From positions 264,802,001 through 264,866,000 of the forward strand of contig OZ024742.1 in the NCBI GenBank assembly GCA_964016885.1: a DNA stretch of 64,000 nt, in the 5' to 3' direction. The DNA is from Eledone cirrhosa (taxonomy: Eukaryota). Below the pieces are notes generated by a model that searched no databases, had not been told where the DNA came from, and worked only from the letters and a program-made list of their open reading frames with translations. A program made the translations under genes and the position numbers. Shown piece by piece: positions 1,204-64,000 of this stretch (positions within the stretch are counted from its first letter, which is position 1; every line of letters starts with the position of its first letter).

Positions 1204-3499
1204 ATTTCCTTATATTAAAGTAGTAACTTAATATATGATTCTTATACAAAATTATTTGAATCTAAATGAGAATCCTTTAAAATATGTGGTTTTGTTTGGT
1301 AGAACAAGAGCTGGCTTTGGTTGGGTTTGTGTGAAAAGGGTTTAATATGAACACTTCAGTATTATTGGGTGTGCTCAGGAGCTGGTTGGTATTATAAGAG
1401 GTAATTTAATCATTGTACAGACTACATGTTGATGCAGTACTATCAACATTATACTTGCACCCTTCAAAAATGAGATTTATCACATTGGTTTAACATTTCA
1501 GAATCTGGAGCTAATATGTTTCCTTGCCACCATGGTTTGAGACAGGAAGTTTTATGCAGGTTTTCTATGGCTTGGTACTATTCTTTACACAAACCCATCC
1601 CTTATTATTATTTTTTTTTAATATGTTTAATTGAATATGTTATTAATATGTTATTAATGACCATTATACTGCAGGATGTATTGTTTATGGGAGACATAAA
1701 CAATGTCACTGCTGGCTTTAGTAAATGGTGTCAATATGACATGTTGATGTGATTAGCTTACACCCATACTCACACATATACACACACCTCACACACATAG
1801 TACCCATAAAAAAAGGGAGCGTATAGAAAAAAATATTTTATTTAATATAATTTATCACAACATTCTATGTGAAGATGTTTAAATCCCCAACTTTTCCTTG
1901 ACCTTCATGGTTTTCAATCAGCCTTCTCCACCTCTTCATTCTGGTCATCACTATATTTTGTAATTTACTTACTACTACAATAACAACACAAACAAATCAA
2001 CTCTGATTAGTAAGTAGGTAGATAGATGTGTATATAGATAGGTAGGTACATAATTAAGTACATAGATAGATGGACAGATAAATAGGTGCTGTTGTTATTG
2101 GTGTTGTCTGACTGTATTGCTGCATTGTCAATACCTATTTTAGTTGGTTTTTGTTATTGTTTTAAACAAAGACAACAGTAAGAGAAGTCAATTTGAAATA
2201 AAAGTAAGAGAGCAGGAATGTCTTTCTACTTTCTACTTGCTGACATGTTTTAACAATAATTTTCTTTTTGTTTCATTTAAAAATACTGATTTCTAAAGTA
2301 ATATAGTTAATATGTAGCATTGTGAGATATATACTGGGTAAGAAAAACATTACTTTGTTTTGTTTTATTTATCATCCTTTTCCCTTTATATATTTCTACC
2401 ACATTGTACTGGCTTTCTTATCAGTCATATACATATACTGATTTCTAAGCTTTTGTCAAAAGACCATAAATTCACAAGCAGGTGTTATCAATTTAAGTGA
2501 ACCTCTAAACATAACTGATATTTATATAACAAAATATTGCAAAACATTTTGTCCAGCAGTTTGCCATTTTCAACAACCCAAATCCATCAGTCTTTGTTTA
2601 GAAATATATATATTTTTTTAATTATGTTTTAACAGAAGACTTGTATGTGAAGATTTTTTCATGAGGCATAATGTTTTGAAGCAAAAATGATGACCTACTA
2701 ACTATAGAGCCATGTCCATTCCATTCTAGTATGGAAAATTGATGCAAAAAACAAAACAAAACAAACACAAAATATTAAAAGAAAAAAAATTCCAATGCAA
2801 AATTCAGTTTGTGAGAAAGATTTAAATAATCCTTATGTAATTCATAACAGTCTATATGTAATGTATAGAAAAATTACTTCGGGGACATATGAGATATTTG
2901 TGATTTAATATGTCTTTGCAGTTTCATGAGTAATTTGCATATTAATACCAGTAGTGACAAAGACAATATCTACAACAAAGAACATAACAGCAATAAAAGC
3001 GTCAATATCATTGAGAGTATGATGACAATAGCATATTAAAATAACAACAGCAACAACAAATGTGTCTATGATATGTAACCTATATTTTTTTCTAAATCAT
3101 TGTTAGTAGCTTTATTTAATTGCTTTTGTTTTGTTTTGTTTTTTTTCTTCTCATCTAATAGCCTGTGTTTACGTAGGTTGAACAGCTTTACGTCATCATC
3201 ATCATGTCCATTTTTCCATTCTTGCATGGATTAGATGTGTCTTCTCCAGTACAATATCTCCCTACTTCTCTCTTTTATTTGTCATCTCCTTTGTGCAGTG
3301 TAACATCTTGAGATCAGTTTTCACCATCTCTGCCCACGTCTTTCTTCAATACACATTTACACATTGAAATATTTAAATTTAAAATGTATTTTATTCTAAT
3401 TTGTAAAACGAGAAGTTGTGTCTATCTCCCGCAACAACTTATTTAAATATGTCAACGCTAACTTAGTCAATATATTGTGAGACCCTCATTAAATTAATG

Positions 3500-8149: not shown

Positions 8150-8997
8150 AGAGAGAGAAACTAGGCATGAGAGGGATCAGATGCAGTGTGCAAGAGAGGA
8201 GAATGTGTTGGTATGGACATATGATGTGTATGAAGGATGACAGCTGCATAAAAATGTGCTGGGCACTCAAGGTTGATGGAAGTTATAGTATAGGAAGACT
8301 TGGGATGAGGAGATAAAAGCTGATCTTGCACAATTGCGCCTCCCGAAGGCGGTAACTGGCATTATTAAACTAATATAGAAGACCTGCTTTCCCATCTTTC
8401 CCATGTGTTTGGGTTGAAGCCTACATCTTCTTTGCACTACCCCCCCCCCCCCCACACACATCCTAACACCCTGACCTTCATTCACGTCCCTTCCTTCCCA
8501 CTTGCATATCCCATTTCCTAACATTCCACACATGTCCTAACACCTCACTCTTCATCCACGCCCTTACACCTCCACCCCTCTCCTGACAAGTGCCCCACTC
8601 TAGATTTACTTCACCAATCCTCGTGTACCTCGCCTTCCTCAGCCCCCAGTGTACTGTAAAATGATCGTTTTGGTGTCACAACAAAAAGTACCCAGTCAAC
8701 ACTAATGTGGTCATGACAAAAAGCACCCAACCCACACTGTAAAGTGCTTGTGTATGTGTCATGACAAAAAGCACCCAACCCACACTGTAAAGTGCTTGTG
8801 TATGTGTCATGACAAAAAGCACCCAGTCCACGTTGTATATGTGATTGGCAATAGGAAGGACATCCAGTTGTAGAAACCAAGCCAGAAACAGTTTTGTACA
8901 AGCGAGAGACAGTCATCTGATCTGGCTTGTCTCACAGAAGGACAACTCATCTAACCCATGCTAGCATGGAATAATAGATGTTAAACAGTGATGATGC
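8150..8997 (+). mobile_element. RTE LINE 3' fragment with 48-bp tandem units in the 3' UTR
   Basis: KLGMRGIRCSVQERRMCWYGHMMCMKDDSCIK; 48-nt periodic unit starting at 8710, 8758 and 8806; CCCATGCTAGCATGGAA..GATGATG end. Confidence 0.8.
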
Positions 8998-9449: not shown

Positions 9450-11599
9450 ATCATCATCATCATCATCATCATCGTTTAACGTCCATCTTCCACGCTTGCA
9501 TGGGTTTGGACGAGAATTTTCCCACTTGAGGCAAGATTGGTTGTCTTGCTCGTATAGGACTGTCTGGCGGGTTTTCTACACACGGCCACATTACAGCGCG
9601 GACTGTGTATTTTTTTGTCGTGACACCTACACGACCTCATTTATTTTGGACTGGATGTTGTGGTACCAACATAACTTTACATTGAAAGGGGTGGTGTGGA
9701 TGCGGGGGGGGGGGGTTATTTTTGTTAGAGGTGCCTACTGACTGTAGGTTTCGCTTTGTACTTAGGCAAGGTGGGTCTTCTGCGTTACTGTGTAGCGCCA
9801 AAGATCTCGGTCCAGTGACATTGTCTTGGAGAGGTGTAAGTGTGTGAGGTCGGAATTTATCAAGTTGTCCCAGGTTTTTCTGGGTCTGCCTACTCCGTGG
9901 CTACCGTCTATTTTTATCGCCCTGCACTTTTTTATACAGCTGTCGTCTTTCATGCGCATCACGTGACCGTACCAACGTAGTCTTCTCTCGAGTAAACAAC
10001 ATCTGATCCCTCTTATTCCTAATTTCTCCATTATTTCGTTTATGCTTTGCCGTTCACGTATATTACTATTACACATCCAGCGGAGCATGCAAGCTTCGTT
10101 CCTCTCCAGTCCGCATATATCCTTTGCACACAATGCCCAAGCCTCACTGCATGTAACATTGTTGTTCGTATGCAGGCATCATACAGCCTGCCTTTCATTT
10201 TTAGAGAGAACCCTTTAGCGCCCAATAGTGGTATAAGCTCTCTGAACTTTTTCCATCCCGTTCTGACTCTAGCTATTGTACTTTCAGAGCACCCTCCACC
10301 GCTGCTGATTTTGTCACCCAGGTAACGGAAGGTGTCCACTATTTCTATAGAACCATCTGTGCAATGGAATGAGCTAGTATTCTGTGGGCACTTGCTGCTA
10401 CTTATTGCACCTGAGCACCGGCCACATCAAAATCTATATTCTTAGTTAGCTTACCTGTGATCCCACATCTTTTATGCACCCATACTTTGAATTTGGGACA
10501 TAAAATGGAATTTCTGCCTACTCCTTTCCTACAGACTGAGCATGGCCATTTCCCAGATGGGACTGGTGCCCTATTTTCTTTCCTACAAACTAGAACTTTA
10601 GTCTTAGACAGGTTAATTTTAAGGCCTTTTGATTCTAGGCCATGCTTCCATGTTTGAAATTTCTTCTCTCGTTCAGCCATTGATTCAGCTATGAGCGTTA
10701 GATCATCTGCGTATAGGAGCTCCCATGGGCAGCCGGTCTTGAACTCCTCTGTTATAGCCTGAAGGGCAATAATAAATAAGAGGGGGCTAAGAATGGAGCC
10801 CTGATGAACACCAACTTTTACGCTAAACTCTTCACCATATTTGTTGTTAATTCTAACCTTGCTGACTGTTTCTTTATACATGGTTTGTATAGCTCTCACA
10901 AGCCATTCATCAACACCTAGTTTTCTAAGAGCCCACCAGATAATGGAGCGGGGGACTCTGTCAAAGGCTTTCTCCAAGTCAACAAAAGCTAAGTATAGGG
11001 GTTTACTTTTAGCTAGAGACTTCTCCTGTAGTTGTCGTACAATGAAAAGAGCGTCTGTGGTACTTTTACCTGACACTAACCCGAACTGCATTTCATCTAG
11101 ATCAATTCGCTCTCTGATTAGTTGCGCTATTACTTTTTCTGTGACCTTCATGACCTGGTTGATTAATTTAATGCCTCTATAGTTACCCCTATCTAGGACA
11201 TCTCCTTTACCCTTGTAGCAGTTAATGATGATGCTGCTACGCCAGTCCTTCGGAACGACCCCATTCTGTATGACTTGGATTACTATCCGGGTGACCATAG
11301 TGTGTCCCACCGTTCCAGATGCTTTCAGCATTTCAGCAACTATTTCTGAAGGCCCAGCCGCCTTACCCGTCTTCATATCTTTGATTGCCTTACTTATTAT
11401 ACTACCTTCAACTTGCACTGCTGGTCCAGAAATAGCCGTCCAGAAATGGAGTCCAGAAATGGAGTCCAGAAATAGCCATCGAAATGACTTGAGCTCTGTC
11501 GTTGGGGTCATACATTTTCCTATTACCCACTCTACTACCCTAAGTATTGAGTACTCTGGTGCGTTATGGTCCATCTGGTTCCTTACCACAACTCCTTTG

Positions 11600-21004: not shown

Positions 21005-21440
21005 TGCCACAATAAATTGCACCCAGCCCACTTTGTAAAGTGGTAATGCTGGTACCACAATAAAATGCATCCAGCCCACTTTGAAAAGTGGTAATGCTGG
21101 TACCACAATAAAATGCACCCAACCCACTTTGTAAAGTGGTAATGCTGGTACCACAATAAAATGCACCCAGCCCACTTCATAAAATAGTAGTGCTTGTGCC
21201 ATAATAAAAAAAAAAGCATTATCTCCACTCTGTAAGATGGTAGTGCTAGTGCCATAATAAAATACACTCAGTACACGTTGTAAAGTGGTTGGCATTAGGA
21301 AGGGCATTCAGCTGTATAAACCATGCCTAAAGTAGAACATATGGACAGGATATAGTCACCTGATCTGTTTAGCCTCAGGAAGTTACAACCCATCTAGCCT
21401 ATGCAAGCATGGAAAATAGACTTTAAATGGTGATGATGAT
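21005..21440 (+). mobile_element. RTE-type 3' UTR fragment with ~6 tandem 48-bp units
   Basis: Units start at 21007, 21055, 21103, 21151, 21199 and ~21252; followed by GTTGGCATTAGGAAGGGCAT and a GATGATGAT tail. Confidence 0.75.
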
Positions 21441-24208: not shown

Positions 24209-26396
24209 ATCATCATCATCATCATCATTTTACATCCGCTTTTCCCTGCTTGCGAGGGTTGGACGGGTCCTATTCAGCACAGCATCTCTGCACTTCTCAC
24301 GGTCCTTCGTCATCTCCTCGGTGAGTTTCAGTGATCTGAGGTCTGCTCTCACCACCTCCGCCCATGTTTTTCGTGGTCTACCTCTACTGCATCTTCCTTC
24401 TACTTGGATTTCTTGGCACTTCTTTACCCAGCGGTCATCCTCCATGCACATCAAATGTCCATACCATCTCAGTCTTCTCTCCTGCACACCACAACTTATC
24501 CCTCTTATACCCAGTTTCTTTCTCAACTCGTCTATGCTTGGTCATTCACGCACATTGACATTGCACATCCAACAGAGCATACTTGCTTCATTTCTCTCCA
24601 GCCGTCGCATATCTTCTGCAGTTGCTGCCCATGTCTCACTACCATGCAGCATCGCGTATCTCACACAGGCATCATATAACCGTCTTTTCGAATTCAGGGA
24701 GAAACCCTTCTTTGTCAACAGAGGAAGCAGCTCTCTAAACTTCTTCCAACCCGTCCTTATTCTAGATACTATGCCCTCGGAACACCCCCTCCCATGCTAA
24801 TCTGATCACCTAGGTACCGGAAGCTATCAACCACTTCTATAGAACCTACCTGCATTGCAAAAATATGTCTATCATTGCGATTATTATTGCCAACTTTCCC
24901 TGTACATCTACTACATATGTATTTCTCCCTACCTGTTAGTTTGCCTGCTATCCCACTACATCTCTTGTGTACCCAAGATCTGCATTGCGTACATTTTATG
25001 GAATTTATGCCAGTTCCTTTCCTACATATCGAACATGGCCATTTCCCCGATGGAATCAGAGTATTGTTCTCTCTTCTACTTATCAACACTTTTGTCTTAG
25101 CTAGGTTCACTCTCAGTCCTCTTGCTTCCAACTGCTGTTTCCATAGCCAGAATTTATTCTCTAGCTCCTCTACTGATTCTGCTATAAGAACCAGATCATC
25201 AGCATAGAGAAGTTCCCATGGGCAGCCAGTCTTAAACTCTCCTCTGTTATGGCTTGGAGGACTATAATGAACAAGAACGGACTGAGGATCAAACCCTGAT
25301 GCACACCTACTTGTATCTGGAATTCCTCTCTAAACTCCATTCCTATTCTCACTTTACTACAGAACACCTGTACATAGCTTGCACTGTCCTCACAAGCCAT
25401 TCCTCTACACCTAGTTTCCTTAGGGACCACCAGATGACTGATCGGGGTACCCTATCAAAGGCCTTCTCTAGGTCAACAAAAGCTAAGTATAGTAACTTAT
25501 TCTTCTCTAAGAACCTCTCTTGTAGTTGCCTCACTAAGAAGAGAGCATCTGTTGTACTTTTCAGAGGCACAAAATCAAACTGCATCTCATCTAATTTGAC
25601 CCTTTCTCTAATCAGTTGCGCTAATATTCTCTCTGCCATTTTCATAACCTGATCCATCAGCTTTATGCCCCTATAATTGCTCCTCTCTAGAGCCTCCCCT
25701 TTACCTTTGTAGCAATTTATGAGAATACTGCTGCACCAGTTTTGGGGTATGACACCACCATATATAGCTTGATTACTGATGCATGGAACCAGTTTAGTGC
25801 CTACTTCTCTTGATGCCTTCAGCATCTCAGCAACTATCCCCGATGGTCCAGCAGCCTTATCATTCTTCATTTCCTTAATTGCCTCTTGTACCCTATATTC
25901 GTCAATCTCAATAGCTGGTCCCTCTGTCGGGTCTACTGGGGGTAATTTCTCTCTGTCTCATTCGTTCTCCACATTCATCAGTCTCTCATAATGACATTTC
26001 TAGGCCTCCTTTTTTTGATCATTCGTGACACTAAGTACACCGGCATCATTCTGGACACACTTATCTCTGACAACATTCTGATTTGTACTGACACACTGCC
26101 TTGCAATGCGGAACACTGCACATTCCTGATCTTCCCGCCGCAGAACATTGGCAAATCTCTTATTCTCAGCCTCCCTGCGTGCTAAGTACACCTGACGTCT
26201 AGCTTCTCTCTTAGCAGCTGTGTATCCTTCTCTATTCCCACTGTTTTTCTAAACCTTCCATGCCAGTCTTTTGTCTCTAATGGCCCTATCTACCATGCTG
26301 TTCCACCACCAGGTCACTCTCTGTCTGGTTGAAGCTCTGCCCAACCACAAGTTTCATCAGTAGCCTGCAGTAAGTTGTCACGCAAGAAATTCCAGT
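24209..26396 (-). mobile_element. RTE-clade LINE (second subfamily, very short 3' UTR), 5'-truncated, several frameshifts
   Basis: ORFs 26000-26191, 25349-25870, 25182-25430, 24769-25131 and 24230-24526 form a colinear RT with intact C4HC3 finger; (TGA)n tail; (TA)n flanks. Confidence 0.92.
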
Positions 26397-52312: not shown

Positions 52313-55300
52313 CTAGCAGAATGTCCCGGTGTTGCTCGGGCTTCTAAACATAGATTGGCATGTTTACCCCTCCTTTCTGAAACAGCACAGATAAGTATGG
52401 AATATCTCGGCCTGGGGATGGTGTCTACATTTTGTGCTTAGGCAAATAATTTTCCATTAAGATTTTTCAAAAGCATGTAATTGCGTTCCCTCTCTTTTTT
52501 GTTGTTGTTTTTGTTGCTGTTGGTGTGATAGCGGCCGTTGGTCGTACTACTAACACAGTCTCGTCCTTCTTCAGCCAATCGTGTATATCCCCTTCTGCCT
52601 CGTCTACCTAAACAATGATTGTAGCACCTCCTTGTACACAATGTTCCTTGTTCTTCCGTGTCGGGCATATGCAAAGAGATTTGTGTTGCTTCCCACTCTT
52701 GAGCAGCCAACGTACAGTTGCCTGTGTGAAAAACATGACTCTTCCAAAAGAAGACCACCAACAGCTAGGGTCTGACCCTAGGATTTGTTGATAGACATTG
52801 CAAAGCTGACATGGTCCGGTGAATGGTTTGTTGGTTGTCTGTTTCAAGTGCTCTTCTGGTGGCAGTACATTCAGCATCTTGCGACCATCGAATAGCAGAT
52901 TCCACTGACAATTCGTTTGCCCACCTTGTTCTTTTTCTTGCCACTTTCACAGTATTTCGGCCAATGGAGTATCTCTTCCTTCGAGGCATGACCTAAAAGC
53001 AGGACGAAGTACTCTAAGACAAACTGGTAGAGTAAGGAGTAAACTCGTCACTGATGCATGTGATTTCCGAACCGTTGACTATGTAATTGATGGCCGTGTG
53101 CCAAAAGTAGTAGGACTTTTTGGGTGGCTTATCGGCAGTAACAATGACGATAAGCAGTCTGTGCTTTCGTGAAATAAATACATTTGTTTATATTTTTGTT
53201 TTTGTGTATGCAAAAATATCTGTACACGAATATATAATTATATATATATATGAGCTGATGGACCAGGTCATGAAAGTAACAGAAAGAGTTATAGCACAGT
53301 TGATTAGGGACCGGGTGAAACTAGATGAGATGAAATTTGGGTTTGTATCAGGAAGAGGCACCACTGATGCCCTCTTCCTTGTGAGTCAGTTACAGGAAAA
53401 GTACCTAGCTAAAAGTAAGCCACTCTACCTGGCATTCATCGATCTCGAGAAAGCCTTTGACAGAGTTCCACGTGCTATAATCTGGTGGGGTCTTAGAAAA
53501 CTAGGAGTAGATGAATGGCTTGTGAAAGCTGTACAAGCCATGTATAGGGGAGCAGTCAGCAAAGTTAGGATTAGCAATGAGTATAGCGAGGAATTTAGCA
53601 TACAGGTCCACCAGGGCTCTGTTCTTAGCCCTCTCCTGTTCATCATAGTCCTGCAGGCAATAACGGAGGAGTTTAAGACCGGATGCCCATGGGAACTCCT
53701 GTATGCAGATGACCTCACACTTATAGCTGAATCTATGGTAGAACTAGAGAAGAAATTCCAAACTTCGAAGCAGGGACTAGAAAGAAAGGGTCTCAAAGTC
53801 AACCTGACAAAGACTAAGGTCCTTGTAACTAGACGAGAAAACAGAGCCCAGATCCCCTCAGTGAAATGGCCTTGCTCAGTATGTAGGAAAGGTGTAGGTA
53901 GGAACTCCATTCTCTGCCCCAAATGAAAACAATGGGTACACAAGAGATATAGCGGGATCTCAGGAAGCTTAATTACGAATGTAGGCTTCACATGTAGCAG
54001 CTGTGCTGGGACAGCAAGCAGCAAACAGCCACAGGAAACAAGTACCACCAAACTCTGGGAGGGCTCTGTAGAAACAGTAGACAGCTTCTGCTACCTAGGT
54101 GACCGAATTAGCAGCAGAGGTGGGTGTTCAGAAAGTACAATAACTAGGGTTATAATGGGATGAAAGAAGTTCAGGGAGCTACTGCCACTGCTAGCTGCAA
54201 AAGGCTTTTCCCTCAAAATGAAAGGCAAACTGTATGATACATGTATACAAACAGCAATGTTACATGGTAGTGAGACCTGGGTGCTGAATGTGGAAGACTT
54301 GCGTAGATTAGAAAGCCTGCATACTCCGATGGATGTGTAATAGTAATATACGCGAACAGCAAAACATAAATGAATTGAGAGAGAGACTGAGCATAAGAGG
54401 AATTAAATGCTGTGTGCAGGAGAGGCGGTTGTGTTGGTATGGACATGCGATGCGTATGAAGGATGACAGCTGCATAAAAAGGTGCAGAGACCTAGAAGTC
54501 AATGGAAACCGCGGAGTGGGGAGACCCAAGAAGACCTGGGATGAGATGATAAAAGCTGACCTTACCCAATTACACCTCTCAAAGGTGATGACACACGACC
54601 GTGACCTCTGGCGTCATGCAGTAATACAGAATACCCGACACCCCACGGGTACAAGTCGAAGCTGAAGCATATAGACAATATGCCCCCACACCCTCCCACT
54701 GCAAAGTGGTCGTGGAGGTGCCATGGCAAAAAGCACCCAGCACTCACTGTAAATAAGGTTGGTGTTAGGAAGGGCATCCAGCTGTAGAAATCAAGCCAGA
54801 ATCAGTTCCCGTATGAGCAAGACAAGGTCAGCCTACCGGACACTGCTTACAACAGGACAACCCGTCTAACTCATGCTAGCGTGGAAGAACAGACATAAAA
54901 CGGTGATGATGATGATGATGATAATGATATATATATTAAAATAACAGATTAATGTTTAAGCAAAGAATCGCTGCATTCACCCTTAACAGGATCTTCTGAA
55001 ACTAAAAAAATCAATCTGTGAACGCAGTAAATATTTCGAAAAACGTTGCAACTGAAGGAAAACAGGTAGGCGATACTTTGGTTCGTGAAGATGTTCGCTG
55101 GCAATAAACGGAAAATAGCGAAGATAATATGTCAGCAATGCGAACAATTTTTGTCCTAATGTCGTAATGCAGACAGACAGACATACAGACAGATATTATA
55201 AGGGCGAGAAGTTATAGCTATGTATCTATCTAAAAGGACAGACTAAGAAAGAGAGAGAGATCGATAACCGGCGCCTAACATGCCTTTAACAACAGAAAAT

Positions 55301-58564: not shown

Positions 58565-58595
58565 ATAGATAGATATATAGATAGATAGATAGATA
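58565..58595. repeat. (GATA)n microsatellite flanking the Tx1-like element 3' end
   Basis: Direct reading. Confidence 0.9.
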
Positions 58596-61500
58596 ACTTT
58601 CTATTTATTTGCCACCAGGCATCAAAGATTGGGACAAATACAAGAGGGGGAGTTTACATACATTTCAAGGGACGTGTAAAAACATATAACAAATCAAATT
58701 CAGCAATTGAAGTCCTCAATAGGGAGGGGGCGTTGACGTGGGTCGCACACACCCCCGAAAAAAATGTGCAACCCTCCTCCTCAGGAGCACAAAGAGCGGG
58801 TGCTCCCTTCCTCTCCTCCTTCCTCTCCTCTCTCACCTACAGGCTGATATAGAGAGAAGGCCCATTCACTCAGGCCATTCTCATCACTTTCACCCACCTT
58901 TCATAAAACTTGCTGGAGTAGAGCACCTCTCTCTCCATTCTGATCCTTCTTCTAAAATGGTACTTGAAAAAAAGGACCTGTTGTTGGCCGGAGAGAAAAG
59001 TGTCTGACCTCAGCCCTTTCAACTGTGTCCACCATACAACCTCTTTCACCATAGCTATCACAAAGAGGAAAACCGCCTCTCTTTCGTTTTTGAAGGAGGG
59101 AGGCGGTTTGATCATGACAATGTACTCGGTGGTCGACCGGATTGGTCCCACTCGCGACAGTAGTCGTTCCACATAGCCCCACAGGTCAGCAACGCCCGGG
59201 CAGTGTACGAATGCGTGTGCGACGGTTTCCTCGTCACGCACGCATCTCAGACAGATCTTCTTCGAGGGGTCCCTACCCGGGCGCCCATATCTGTAGAGCT
59301 TGTCCCGAATGGGTAGAGCTCCTCGGTAGCACTGCCAAGCCAGGGACTTTTGGAAGTCGTCCATCGGTCCCGGGCCAAACGTCCTACAGAACAGATTGGC
59401 TAGCTCGTCTTCCTCCATGCCCAGAGCCTCTCCGAGAGCATCGTCGCACTTGCTGCACACCAACCTTCCATAGAATGTTGAGGTTGAGTCTCCACTGATT
59501 GCCAGATCCGCTTGCCAGAGGGCCGTGAGCGCCTGGGCACATTCAATGTGCCAGTCGCCCACTTTTCTCAGTCTCGCTTGACCCAGGATTGCAGCTTGGT
59601 GAGTGAGACGAGTCTCGGAAAGGCTCGCCTCACAAAAGGGTCCCACACCGGCTGACTGGGGAGGAATACCTGGAGGTGCCGTAGCCTTAATGCGTGTCTA
59701 CGCATCGTCAGCCACGGCATTCCGAGCCCTCCGTTCGAAGGGTGTTGACAGCATATCGATCTTCTCACCAAAGGGGCCCACTTCTTCCAAAGGAATCGGA
59801 AGAGCGTGTGCTCCATTTTAGCGAGCGTTTTCGCTGGGCAAGGCACGATGGTCAAGCGGTAGTAGACGATGGACGCTATATAAATGTTTTCCACCTCCGC
59901 TCGACCTTTCAGGGATAGTTTGCACTCGGCCCAGTGTCGGAGAGCATCGGTTTGCCTCTCCACGTTCTGAGTTGCAAACCGACGGACTTGTCCTGGTTCA
60001 GCTTGGCTCCTGTAAACCTTTCGTATTCCTCCAGTAAGGTGCCGATCTGCCCGATTTCCGAGGCGCACGACACCATTACTGTCACGTCATCGGCGTAGGC
60101 CGACACCGCTTTCCGCAATCCCGGTTCCAAGGGGATTCCCTGCAACAGCTCCAACTTCCGCAGTAGTGGCTCGAGAGCCAGCACATACAGAAGGGAGAAG
60201 AGAGGGCATCCCTGTCGGATGGATCGCGCGATTTGGAACGGCTCCTAGAGGTAGCCGTTCACCTTGACCCTCGAACAGGTGTTGCTGCTGTGCATTGCAG
60301 CAATCCAGCCCCTGAAAACAGGTCCGAAGCCTGCCGCCGTGAGCACCGCATCCAGGTACCGATGTTCGACCCTATCGAACGCCTTAGATTGATCCAAGTT
60401 GATCAGGGCCCCACCAAAGCCGAGTTCGTTCCTTACCCTCTCTACGATGTATAGCATGAGGTGGAGGTTGTTGTGTATGGACCTGGATGGGATTGCGCAT
60501 GTCTGCGCTTCTCCCACCAGGTTCCCGATGACAAGCGCCAACCTGTTCGCTAACACTTTGGCCAAAATCTTTAACTCTGTGTTTAGCAGAGTTATGGGCC
60601 TGAAGTTATATATGTCATCCCCCTTCTTCTCGTCCTTCCTCACCAGCGTGACTACACCCTTGGTCACAGAACTGGGAATTCTCCCGTTTCGTTGCCAGTT
60701 GCAGTAGACCGCCTCGAGGAGATCGGAGAACAAGTCCAACATTGCTACATAAAGTTTGTATGGTAGACCATCGAGACCGGGAGTTTTGCGTTTGCCGCAT
60801 AGACTCAGCGCTTCCCCTATTTCAGCGGCTGAAATCGGCCGTTCGCAGGACTTCGCCTTCCCCTCCAAGAGCCGCGGCAGACTGTCGAGGTATGGACCGA
60901 AATCCATGGCCTAACCCGGCCCGCCATGTTGGTGGTGAAGAATTTAGAGTGGAGAAAAAGGAAAAGACACCTACCTGTCCTTCTCCTGGAGACGATTTGC
61001 ACAATTTCCATGGGGGTGTCGGCGGGGTTGTTTGATGGGGTGGTATTTGAGATGTGGTGGGGACATCAGTGTGTGGTGGGGTGGGGGTGTTTGGTGGAGG
61101 AGGGGTGTCTGGAGTTGTGGTGGTGGGGAAACATTTCAAGAGGACGCGGTTGCTAGGTCTAGTACAGGGCTTCCCCACGTCCTCGGGAAAGTTCTGTTTG
61201 AGCATTGCGTAGGTGTTCCTTGGGGCCCTAATCATTTTTAAATGAGGTTTAATCGCCGCGTTGGTGAACATTTTCCCTTCGGTTTCCACCAGTGTTTTGT
61301 TGTTTGTGTTGATGTATGTATACTGTTTTTGTTGTGTTGTGTTTGTTTTTGTTTGTTGTTCTTGTGTGTGTTTGCGTTTTGTAGTATGTGTTATGTTTTC
61401 GGGAGGGGTGGGTTTTTTTGTTTGTGATGTTTGTTCTGTTTGTGCTGGTGGTTGTGTGTTTGTTGCATTTTTGTTAATGTGGTGCCTTCTTTTCTTTCTT

Positions 61501-62961
61501 TTTACAGGTTGAACGGATTCTCCCTCGTCGTCACTGGGTGACGTTGATAAGGGGTCCTCGTCCGTGTTGTTGGGGAGGGGTATATTTTGGGGTTTTGTTG
61601 TGGTTGCTTTTGTATTTGTTTTGGGTGGGACAGTGTCTTGTGTTGTTATTTTTTCGTGTTGTTGTTGTGGTGGTGGTGGTGGTGGTTGTGTTGTTGTGTG
61701 TGGGGTGGGCAGAAGCGTCTTTTTTTTGGGGGGGGGGGATTTAAAAGGGGATAGGAAGCCCTCAGCTGACCACTTCTTGAACAGTGGTAGCATGAAGGCC
61801 GCCTGCCCTCAACAGAAATGTTTAGGAAGGCGACTCCATCCAGGGACACACGCTGCGGTATTCTTGCTATCCGTTCTGGTCTCATTTGGACCAGAATTTC
61901 AAGGCTATTCCCGCCGAATACGCCCCGGTAGATTCGCCTGACAAAAGGATTGTGTCCTCATCTTCTAAGAATCCCGTTAGCACCCACCAAATGCTCGCAT
62001 TTGGCCTGATGCCCGAGATTCTTATCTTTTGAGTTCTTTTCCTCAAATATGTGGGGAAAAAGGTGTATGCTTTGGATACAATTGGCGACACAGAATATTT
62101 CCGTGCCGCCAATTCATCTTGCATTAAAACAGATATGCTTCCATACAGTTTCCCTTTCTGTATGAAAGCGATATCCTTCCACTACTTAGGACCAGCTCAA
62201 TTTCGCTTTGGGACAATTGAGCCGGTTTCCTAGTCGTGTTCGAAACTGTCCTAAAGATTGCAGTCCTGAGGACTGTGTCCCTTCTAATTTCTTCGGGGGA
62301 GGTAATTGTGAATTCCCCACCTTCCCCGAAATTTACACAATTCCTTGCTTCTTTCAGCAATTTCTTGGCATTCGAGATGTCCAGTGCCTTGTATATCTGC
62401 GTTTCTCGGACCGCCTGTGCGAAGAAGACTGCAGCTGTGGGTCCGTTTTCTTTCGTGTTGTTAACATTGTTGTTGTTGTTGCTTTTTTCCTTTGTTGGTG
62501 TTGTCATTATTGCTGTTGTTAGTTGCGTTGTTATTGTCATTGTTGCTGTTGTTGGTTGTGTTGTTATTGTCATTGTTGTTCTTGTTTGTGTAATTGTTAC
62601 TTTTGAGTTTTCACCCATTTCCACAATTTTTTCTTTTGATTCCGTGGTTTCTTTTGCGGGAGTGAGGAGGGAAGGCTTACAGTGTTGTGCTGCTACATTT
62701 TCTATATCACTTTCCATGGGGGGGGGGGGGACGCATGCGTCGTATTAATGGCGTCCATTGTCACTAAATGACTTTTTATCGACAACTTATAACTATTAAA
62801 TTTCACCCCAAAAAGGGACGAAATTTATTTTACCCAACGTCTGCAGGCCCAGGCGAGGGGTTAAACACAACAAATAACAAATTACTTAAACAGACCTACC
62901 GCTTCTCGTAATGAATTCCGACAAAATGCAGGAGCGAAACAAAAACACGTCTATCTTCTCC
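58596..62961 (-). mobile_element. Tx1/L1-clade LINE with both termini, frameshifted ORF1 and ORF2, APE endonuclease region missing
   Basis: ORF1 pieces 62717-60930 with degenerate knuckle VEGRRPSCYHCSRSGQLRASYP; ORF2 pieces KTPGLDGLP, FRPITLLNTELKILAK, LDQSKAFDRVEH, AYADDV, CLRC..ETVAHAFVHC; AATAAA at 58604-58609 (-); (GATA)n both sides. Confidence 0.9.
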
Positions 62962-62962
62962 G

Positions 62963-62983
62963 AGATAGATAGATAGATAGATA
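62963..62983. repeat. (GATA)n spacer between two tandem Tx1-like elements
   Basis: Direct reading. Confidence 0.9.
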
Positions 62984-62984
62984 T

Positions 62985-64000
62985 GTTACTTTATTAGCCA
63001 CAGGGACACAAAAGAAGGGGACAAATATAAAGGGGGAAGTTTACATACAATAAAAACGTGTAAAATACTATCACAAATGCAATTTAAAAGTTAATCGATT
63101 TTCCCCAATAGGGGAAGACATTTCATATGGGTAACACATACCCCCAAAAATATGTGCAACCCTCATCTCCAGGAGTACGAAGAGTTTGTAACCCTTTCCT
63201 CTCTTCCTCTTTTTCCTCAACCTACAGGCTGATATAGAGAGAAGGCCCATTCACTTAGGCCATTCTCGCCACTTTCACCCACCTTTCATAAAACTTGCTG
63301 AGGTACAGCACCTCTCTCTCCATCCTGATTCTTCTTCCAAAGAAGTATTTGAAAAAAGAATCAGTTGTTGGCCGGAGAGAAAGGTGTCTGACCTCAGCCC
63401 TTTTAACCTTGTCCACGATACAACCTCTTTCGCCATAGCAATCACACAAAGGAAAACCGCCTCTCCTTCGTTTTTGAAGGAGGGTGGCGGTTTGATCATG
63501 ACAATGTACTCGGTGGTCAACCGGATTGGACCCACCCGCGACAATAGTCATTCTACATAGCCCCACAGGTCGGTAAATCCCGGGCAGTGTATGAATGTCT
63601 GCGCGACGGTTTCTTCATCTCGCACACATCTCGGACAGATCTTTTTCGAAGGGTCCCTGCCCGGGCGCCCATGTCTGTAGAGCTTGTCTCGAACTGGTAG
63701 AGCTCCTTGGTAGCACTGCCAGGCCAGGGACTTTTGGAAGTTGTCCATCGTTCCCGGGCGGAAGGTCCTACCGAACACTGGCCAGTTCATTTTCCTCTAC
63801 GCCCAGAGTTTCTCCGAGCACATCGTCGCACTTGCTGCGGATCAACCCTCTATAGAATGACGAAGTGGAGTCTCCACTGATCGCCGTGTCCGCCTACCAG
63901 AGGGCTGTGAGCGCCTGAGCACATTCGATGTGCCAGTCGCCCATTTTCCTCGGTCTTTGCTTGACCTGCAGCTCTGTCAGCGAGATGAGTCGTGGGAAGG
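62985..64000 (-). mobile_element. Second Tx1/L1-clade LINE of the same family (3' end; continues beyond window)
   Basis: ORFs 63548-63790 and 63275-63544 parallel 58870-59646 (WQCYQGALPVRDKL..CPRC..HC); AATAAA at 62990-62995 (-). Confidence 0.9.

Follow-up and report, generated by a model that had tools for sequence, protein, structure and literature searches.

TATCT-ending Tx1-like LINE families in Eledone cirrhosa, found mostly in (TATC)n/(GATA)n microsatellites, and their close sisters in other repeats

Two decayed retrotransposon copies, named here E1 and E2, lie at the end of a 64-kb stretch of the Eledone cirrhosa genome (positions 264802001-264866000 in a 3.0-Gb assembly; this whole stretch is called the window, and its own numbering is used below). 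The explanation that we prefer, with a probability of about 0.78, is that E1 and E2 are copies of two sister families in a Tx1-like lineage of long interspersed nuclear elements (LINEs) whose members end at TATCT and are mostly located in (TATC)n/(GATA)n microsatellites, likely because their endonuclease nicks there. Targeting of microsatellites is a known lifestyle of Tx1 elements; what is added here is a GATA target, which was not found in the open literature, and the existence of close sisters with different targets.

The decayed pair and the flanks of its relatives

The window contains only two exact GATA/TATC runs of at least three units, (GATA)4 at 58580-58595 and (GATA)5 at 62964-62983, and both border these elements (Table 1). 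The initial annotation had noted that the three junctions visible in the window abut (GATA)n in one orientation, and that the 3' ends consist of AATAAA and a few bases running into (TATC)n without poly(A). Both descriptions hold, with 6-8 bases between AATAAA and TATC in the two copies. As the middle tract serves the 3' end of E2 as well as the 5' end of E1, two tracts underlie the three junctions; a fourth junction, the truncation point of E2 (2,154 bp in total), lies beyond the window at the window-equivalent position 65137 and is also preceded by (TATC)3. The two copies had been assigned to a single family. They are indeed related and arranged head-to-tail, but with 82% identity over the final 1.0 kb and distinct 3' ends they are, as judged from their sequences, members of sister families. 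An origin of the tandem by local duplication or unequal recombination, in place of two insertions, is hardly credible: the young families of the lineage do form arrays with a period of ~5.7-5.8 kb, but mixed-family tandems are common, and the divergence of E1 and E2 refutes such an origin for this pair.

The association with TATC extends over the whole genome. The 21-base 3' end of E1 has 180 exact matches, 156 of which continue with TATCT, and a 17-base 3' end common to the E2-type sisters has 11,935 matches (2 for a control), 9,692 of which continue with two bases and TATCT. The background frequency of TATCT is 0.17% of positions in 228 kb, a set comprising the window and the stretches upstream of copies, so the association seen at the E1-family ends is not due to chance. 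On the 5' side, 28 of the first 30 of the 68 E1-family heads stand directly after TATCT and a pair of TATC units occurs within 24 bases of 29 of the 30, while a young TATC sister family has 566 head matches, of which the first 30 examined are all preceded by (TATC)2. The flanks are thus non-random, in agreement with the earlier proposal that the family targets (TATC)n/(GATA)n. In the accessible part of PMC4494074, Kojima takes more than 20% of flanks with one sequence type as the criterion of target specificity, and the lineage lies far above this value (156/180, 9,692/11,935, 28/30 and 30/30). Six A's were seen at 0/30 3' ends. In the sampled loci, the E1-type 3' ends run into TATC (71), TC (5), TA (3) or other sequence (5).

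Full-length copies were sought and found, e.g. L065 (5,724 bp) and the TATC-flanked L416 of the young TATC family. The latter is intact, with both open reading frames (ORFs) open over 625 (ORF1) and 1,166 (ORF2) codons, and eight compared copies of its family are 99.2-99.8% identical. E1 is 93-94% identical to L065 in long blocks and 83-90% in the low-complexity ORF1 blocks. Its ORF2 remnant, 84-90% identical to an intact sister ORF2 (tblastn), retains Pfam matches to the reverse transcriptase (RT; RVT_1, E 2.6e-12 and 6.1e-8) and to the C-terminal zinc finger (zf-RVT, E 1e-6). Relative to L065, 125 bp are deleted from the RT region at ~59933; the endonuclease (PF03372), although deleted from E1, is found in other copies of the E1 family.

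A few further observations concern the distribution of copies. Most E1-family heads (57/68) are located on the four largest contigs, C1-C4, which make up 54% of the genome (p 3e-7). L142 and L165 are separate insertions with TATC runs of unequal length, yet the sequence downstream of these runs, although it looks unique, is the same in both, meaning that another repeat supplies TATC targets. Sequencing reads from three organisms show related sequence without usable 3' flanks (repeats are skipped); 26 and 8 reads that lie within the 3' untranslated region (UTR) have a loose end of GATA, and as these may come from one locus they were not counted as evidence.

Target, tail and the two kinds of 5' boundary

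Of the first 100 E1-family 3' ends in the list, 79 were unpaired, and truncated copies were studied in a sample of 60 of these. The sample contains 25 copies that reach the 5' head, 11 truncated copies whose 5' side shows TATC or a duplication and 17 truncated copies with neither; the remaining 7, which are chimeric or have variant heads, were excluded. It is very unlikely that TATC is a 3' tail encoded by the element, as when RTE elements generate microsatellites, and that the association is passive. Such a tail would fit the TATC found at most 3' ends and its absence at the 5' side of 17/28 truncated E1-family copies. However, the 3' flanks follow the local target, which may be (TA)n, (TC)n or else unique DNA; this target is duplicated at the 5' side. 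In L176, for example, 27 bases are inserted in unique DNA, and the accompanying duplication of 18 bases begins with TATCT; like L161, L184 and L190 this copy duplicates non-repeat bases without added TATC, and the sister copies L230 and L246, read by eye, do likewise. The 3' flank is therefore the pre-existing target and not a tail of the element, and the tail, a possibility that the initial annotation had itself raised, is largely refuted. In addition, the 5' heads are flanked by TATC, and 6 of the 9 arrays of (TATC)3+ in the 228-kb background follow no 3' end of the lineage. The lineage thus differs from the RTE-type generators of microsatellites in two respects: the repeat is not an element-encoded tail and the 5' flank is not unrelated. 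Target duplications in truncated copies measure 16-22 bp. In truncated sisters TATCT is present at 13/17 boundaries inside loci, and three of the four misses are, by eye, breaks inside the element. What is recognised appears to be a short motif of the TATCT type, which is also used outside microsatellites.

Some truncated copies are extremely short. L159, L172, L176 and L190 measure 27-28 bases and three of them begin at the same base, which suggests that insertion tends to be aborted at a favoured point immediately ahead of the motif that resembles a poly(A) signal.

Full-length copies have a different 5' boundary. We scored 41 of them with both flanks (4 of 20 in one set were dropped, three without a 3' end and one with a doubled end), and a copy was considered informative if at least one of the 15 bases next to the 3' junction did not belong to the repeat (n=21). 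The non-repeat flank is duplicated in 1/21 full-length copies versus 6/9 informative truncated ones (p 0.0009); in L185 the duplicated flank is followed by an extra TATCT. Since full-length copies rarely duplicate such flank, as in R1A of Drosophila, their RNA probably begins with target sequence. In the open parts of the respective papers, full-length melanogaster-type R1A elements are described as having a precise small deletion and all truncated ones duplications, with target bases proposed on the RNA's 5' end (PMC2718515), and such bases are also invoked for the 5' joining of R2 elements with upstream self-cleavage (PMC3774820). As far as those texts go, the present lineage is similar in its precise full-length 5' junction without duplication and in its duplicated truncated copies, and a small target deletion is common to R1A and to the 72-bp-satellite sister described below. 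The differences are that R1A and R2 belong to other clades and use ribosomal DNA as target, and that an Rfam search of the 5' end of the present elements for a ribozyme or other known RNA gave nothing near the gathering score.

The following sequence of events could account for the junctions. Opposite TC|TATCT, the APE endonuclease domain would nick the strand that reads GATA, and at this nick the RT would prime without a poly(A) tail. The second strand would be cut ~16-22 bp downstream, which would give the duplications. A full-length RNA would start with target sequence and, by analogy with the rDNA elements, the end of its cDNA would anneal to the target, leaving a fixed 5' junction and no duplication of non-repeat bases. 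TATC would then remain on both sides of each insertion, so that later copies of any TATC family could stack head-to-tail, as in the window.

Alternatively, the targeting may be real while the fixed full-length 5' junction reflects a top-strand cut set by the protein, the RNA carrying none of the target. We regard this as quite improbable. It would agree with upstream TATC stretches as short as 4-9 bases (L142, L144, L414), and head and target are indistinguishable in pure repeats; it is at odds with the near-invariant 15-mer at the junction of the minisatellite family (see below), with the extra TATCT of L185, and with the fixed phase of the heads (28/30 and 30/30).

The heads themselves show some regularities. 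In three families an inverted copy of the target (7, 6 and 10 bases), with which the target bases would pair, lies within the element close to its edge; the E1-family head contains the 7-base copy as well as a GACGTG motif. The complement is only 4 bases long in the 72-bp-satellite family and absent in the (ATT)n family, so a head hairpin is not general, and heads fold no more stably than shuffled sequences (z 0.54 and z -0.50). At L035/L074 (G000:C2:323820491) a partial head and an inverted GATA run precede the true head, as if produced by fold-back during 5' joining. A motif GAC(G/A)(T/C)G is located 10-20 bases inside otherwise unrelated heads (window 62946-62952); its sequence is like that of the downstream promoter element in LINEs of Drosophila, a reading that we regard as tentative.

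There are a few points that speak against TATC targeting by a Tx1 lineage and that need to be discussed. Firstly, 13-19% of the 3' ends are not directly followed by TATCT, and some of them run into (TA)n, (TC)n or unique DNA. Secondly, 17 of the 28 scored truncated E1-family copies lack both TATC and a duplication at their 5' boundary, and a search within 10 kb for the missing 5' parts showed just one of these 17, L191, to be interrupted. As 24/42 full-length copies are shorter than 5.5 kb, later deletion is common, and it is a plausible cause of these 17 boundaries. Thirdly, the truncated set of 6/9 was pre-selected for TATC or duplication, and under a strict count that includes the 17 unexplained copies the comparison becomes 1/21 versus 6/20 (p 0.045). 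Finally, the Tx1 assignment of the initial annotation is no more than likely in the light of the protein sequences.

Sister families and the change of target

Three close sister families end in other repeats. A protein search revealed a young, intact (ATT)n family of 5.8 kb with an ORF2 of 1,150 codons, the copies of which are 0.2% apart: 29/30 3' ends enter (ATT)n, 19/19 located heads follow (ATT)4, and the copies form tandem arrays with a period of ~5,840 bp. A second protein search gave a young, intact family in a 72-bp satellite (ORF2 of 1,152 codons, 89% identical to the E1-family RT). All 16 fetched full-length copies sit at the same satellite base and each lacks the same 7 target bases; genome-wide, 256/260 ends match this junction. 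Only 30/260 of these ends are on C1-C4, and those on C1-C3 are near contig ends. The third family, the closest sister of the E1 family (~91%), ends in a degenerate 35/70-bp minisatellite in 24/24 cases seen, with (TATC)2 in none. Its 5' junction has the same 15-mer in 4/5 copies and one mismatch in the fifth, while the 3' subunits differ.

The RT tree places the (ATT)n family at the base, followed by the young TATC family, the 72-bp-satellite family, E2, and the pair formed by the E1 and minisatellite families (supports 100, 98, 80 and 90). This order suggests, with weak inner supports, that the TATC target may be ancestral to two target switches. Among the sister families the RT is 82-92% identical and the endonuclease 59-83%.

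It is unlikely, in our estimate, that the enzyme reads merely a short core (roughly YC|TAT) and that the choice of repeat is mostly set by the pairing of target bases on the RNA ends. This would be consistent with junctions that are all readable as |TAT (28/30), with a beta-hairpin loop of the endonuclease that is identical in the E1 and 72-bp-satellite families, and with the finding that only 2/1,139 ORF2 sites set the two TATC families apart from the two satellite families. Two observations argue the other way: insertions near the target occur without TATC added at the 3' end, and in the closest pair of families the endonuclease is more divergent (17/232 sites) than the rest of ORF2 (34/907; p 0.03). 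As for the loop, the open text of PMC1950540 reports that it shapes the target choice of L1 and that loop grafts did not transfer specificity. Endonuclease site 116, which lies beside the YAP motif and aligns with T119 of L1, is Gly in all three families that use microsatellites, but Trp in the two that use satellites; with five families only, we point to it as a lead for a candidate specificity determinant in the protein sequence. We speculate, as a tentative and rather doubtful scheme, that retargeting proceeds largely via the RNA ends: each family would carry a copy of its target at the front of the RNA (three families with an inverted copy inside), so that a near-identical ORF2 could shift among (TATC)n, (ATT)n and two satellites, the residue by the active-site YAP (Gly/Trp) acting as a switch on the protein side.

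Table 1. Features of the window locus (window positions) and locations of the sister-family copies.
Feature	Position	Strand	Remarks
Interrupted (GATA)n tract, E1 3' flank	58565..58595	.	element strand reads TATCTATC...
E1, decayed near-full-length LINE with frameshifts, stops and two internal deletions	58596..62962	-	4,367 bp of ~5.7-kb element; both ends kept
E1 3' UTR	58596..58839	-	AATAAA 58604-58609 plus 8 bases, without poly(A); ORF2 end placed by tblastn
E1 ORF2 remnant with RT and C-terminal zinc finger, spanning residues ~410-1145	58840..60925	-	Pfam and tblastn
E1 deletion junction, ~1.2 kb lost (whole endonuclease domain and linker)	60922..60925	-	L065 positions 2067-3271 absent
E1 ORF1 remnant, frameshifted, degenerate zinc knuckle	61128..62723	-	tblastn with intact sister ORF1
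Unique E1-family 5' head	62939..62962	-	68 exact matches genome-wide
(GATA)5 tract common to E2 3' end and E1 5' end	62963..62983	.	
E2, 3' part of 5'-truncated sister-family copy	62984..64000	-	AATAAA 62990-62995; ORF2 C-terminus by tblastn
(ATT)n family copies	L249-L278, L312-L331, e.g. G000:C2:132048956		
72-bp-satellite family copies	L362-L377, e.g. G000:C25:4725292		head begins with perfect 12-base palindrome
Minisatellite family copies	L378-L381, L333-L361		perfect 10-bp stem, target-like bases with head

Classification and comparison with known elements

A CCHC zinc knuckle in ORF1 is a feature of the Tx1 clade. The intact sister elements have an ORF1 in addition to an ORF2 with PF03372 (APE), PF00078 (RT) and PF13966 (C-terminal zinc finger); a CX2CX4HX4C pattern is visible in two intact ORF1s, one of which matches zf-CCHC with E 0.007, under the Pfam cut-off, and the other not at all. 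A homologue search with ORF1 gave no match. With phmmer, an intact ORF2 scores 288 bits to "transposon TX1 149 kDa"; proteins of fish and corals give 307-419 bits, and human L1 ORF2p gives 171. In trees, the lineage forms a clade of its own, sister to unnamed proteins, within an open group that includes U2-inserted elements and "transposon TX1 149 kDa". Both trees are quick SH-aLRT trees, one of which kept 57/127 rows, and they contain neither curated Tx1 references nor an L1 row; therefore we call the lineage Tx1-like only. The nearest outside relatives are ~50% identical, and a metagenome search gave only distant relatives (21-49%).

It is useful to compare these families with the known target-specific elements. 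Published microsatellite targets, in the accessible parts of the literature (among PMC4494074, PMC3812793, PMC4640811, PMC8869645 and PMC9115989), are TC, TTC, TTCC/TTTC, ACAY, AC, TAA and TG; satellites and transposons are known there as Tx1 targets as well (PMC4494074 etc.). A GATA/TATC target was not found in this open literature, while Repbase and the published target lists, including a key 2004 paper, lie outside its coverage and could hold one. As described in the open parts of PMC4494074 and PMC3812793, Kibi in (TC)n and Koshi in (TTC)n of teleosts, and a crocodilian Tx1 in (TTCC)n/(TTTC)n, are likewise APE-type LINEs of the L1/Tx1 group that lie in one orientation in a microsatellite. 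The present lineage differs from them in its TATC/GATA target and in having close sisters that use three other repeats; in the trees it is a clade apart from fish and crocodile proteins, the sequences of Kibi and Koshi themselves not being among the rows. Mammalian-type L1 elements have a poly(A) tail and dispersed insertions, unlike the 3' ends described above, with six A's in 0/30.

Two metagenome LINEs, L279:4675-4885 and L285:5815-5977, end in U2 small nuclear RNA (snRNA) genes, and L291 seems to begin with U2-like sequence as well. L279 and L285 resemble Keno, the U2 snRNA-targeting Tx1 element, and with ~40% RT identity they fall in the same loose group as our lineage; they differ from it in target, in their separate branch and in their A-rich 3' ends. 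In octopods, repeat annotations describe L1-Tx1 elements as expanded and recently active (13 families; open parts of PMC13282606 and PMC8967140). The word "target" is absent from the accessible text of PMC13282606 and "microsatellite" from that of PMC8967140.

If the proposed targeting is correct, GATA/TATC joins the short list of repeats used by microsatellite-specific APE retrotransposons, with ~ten thousand copies, and numerous GATA microsatellites of such a genome are flanked by retrotransposons. The comparison set may be more useful still, as it offers young, intact and closely related sisters in four different repeats within one genome. Candidate residues and the effects of the RNA ends are directly testable here, which bears on how APE endonucleases gain specificity or change target.

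The window contains other repeats besides E1 and E2. RT-bearing LINE fragments are located at 53114-54665, which we take to be RTE-like, and at 10672-11412 and 25352-25906, and two 48-bp tandem arrays with related units lie at 8705-8825 and 21007-21209.

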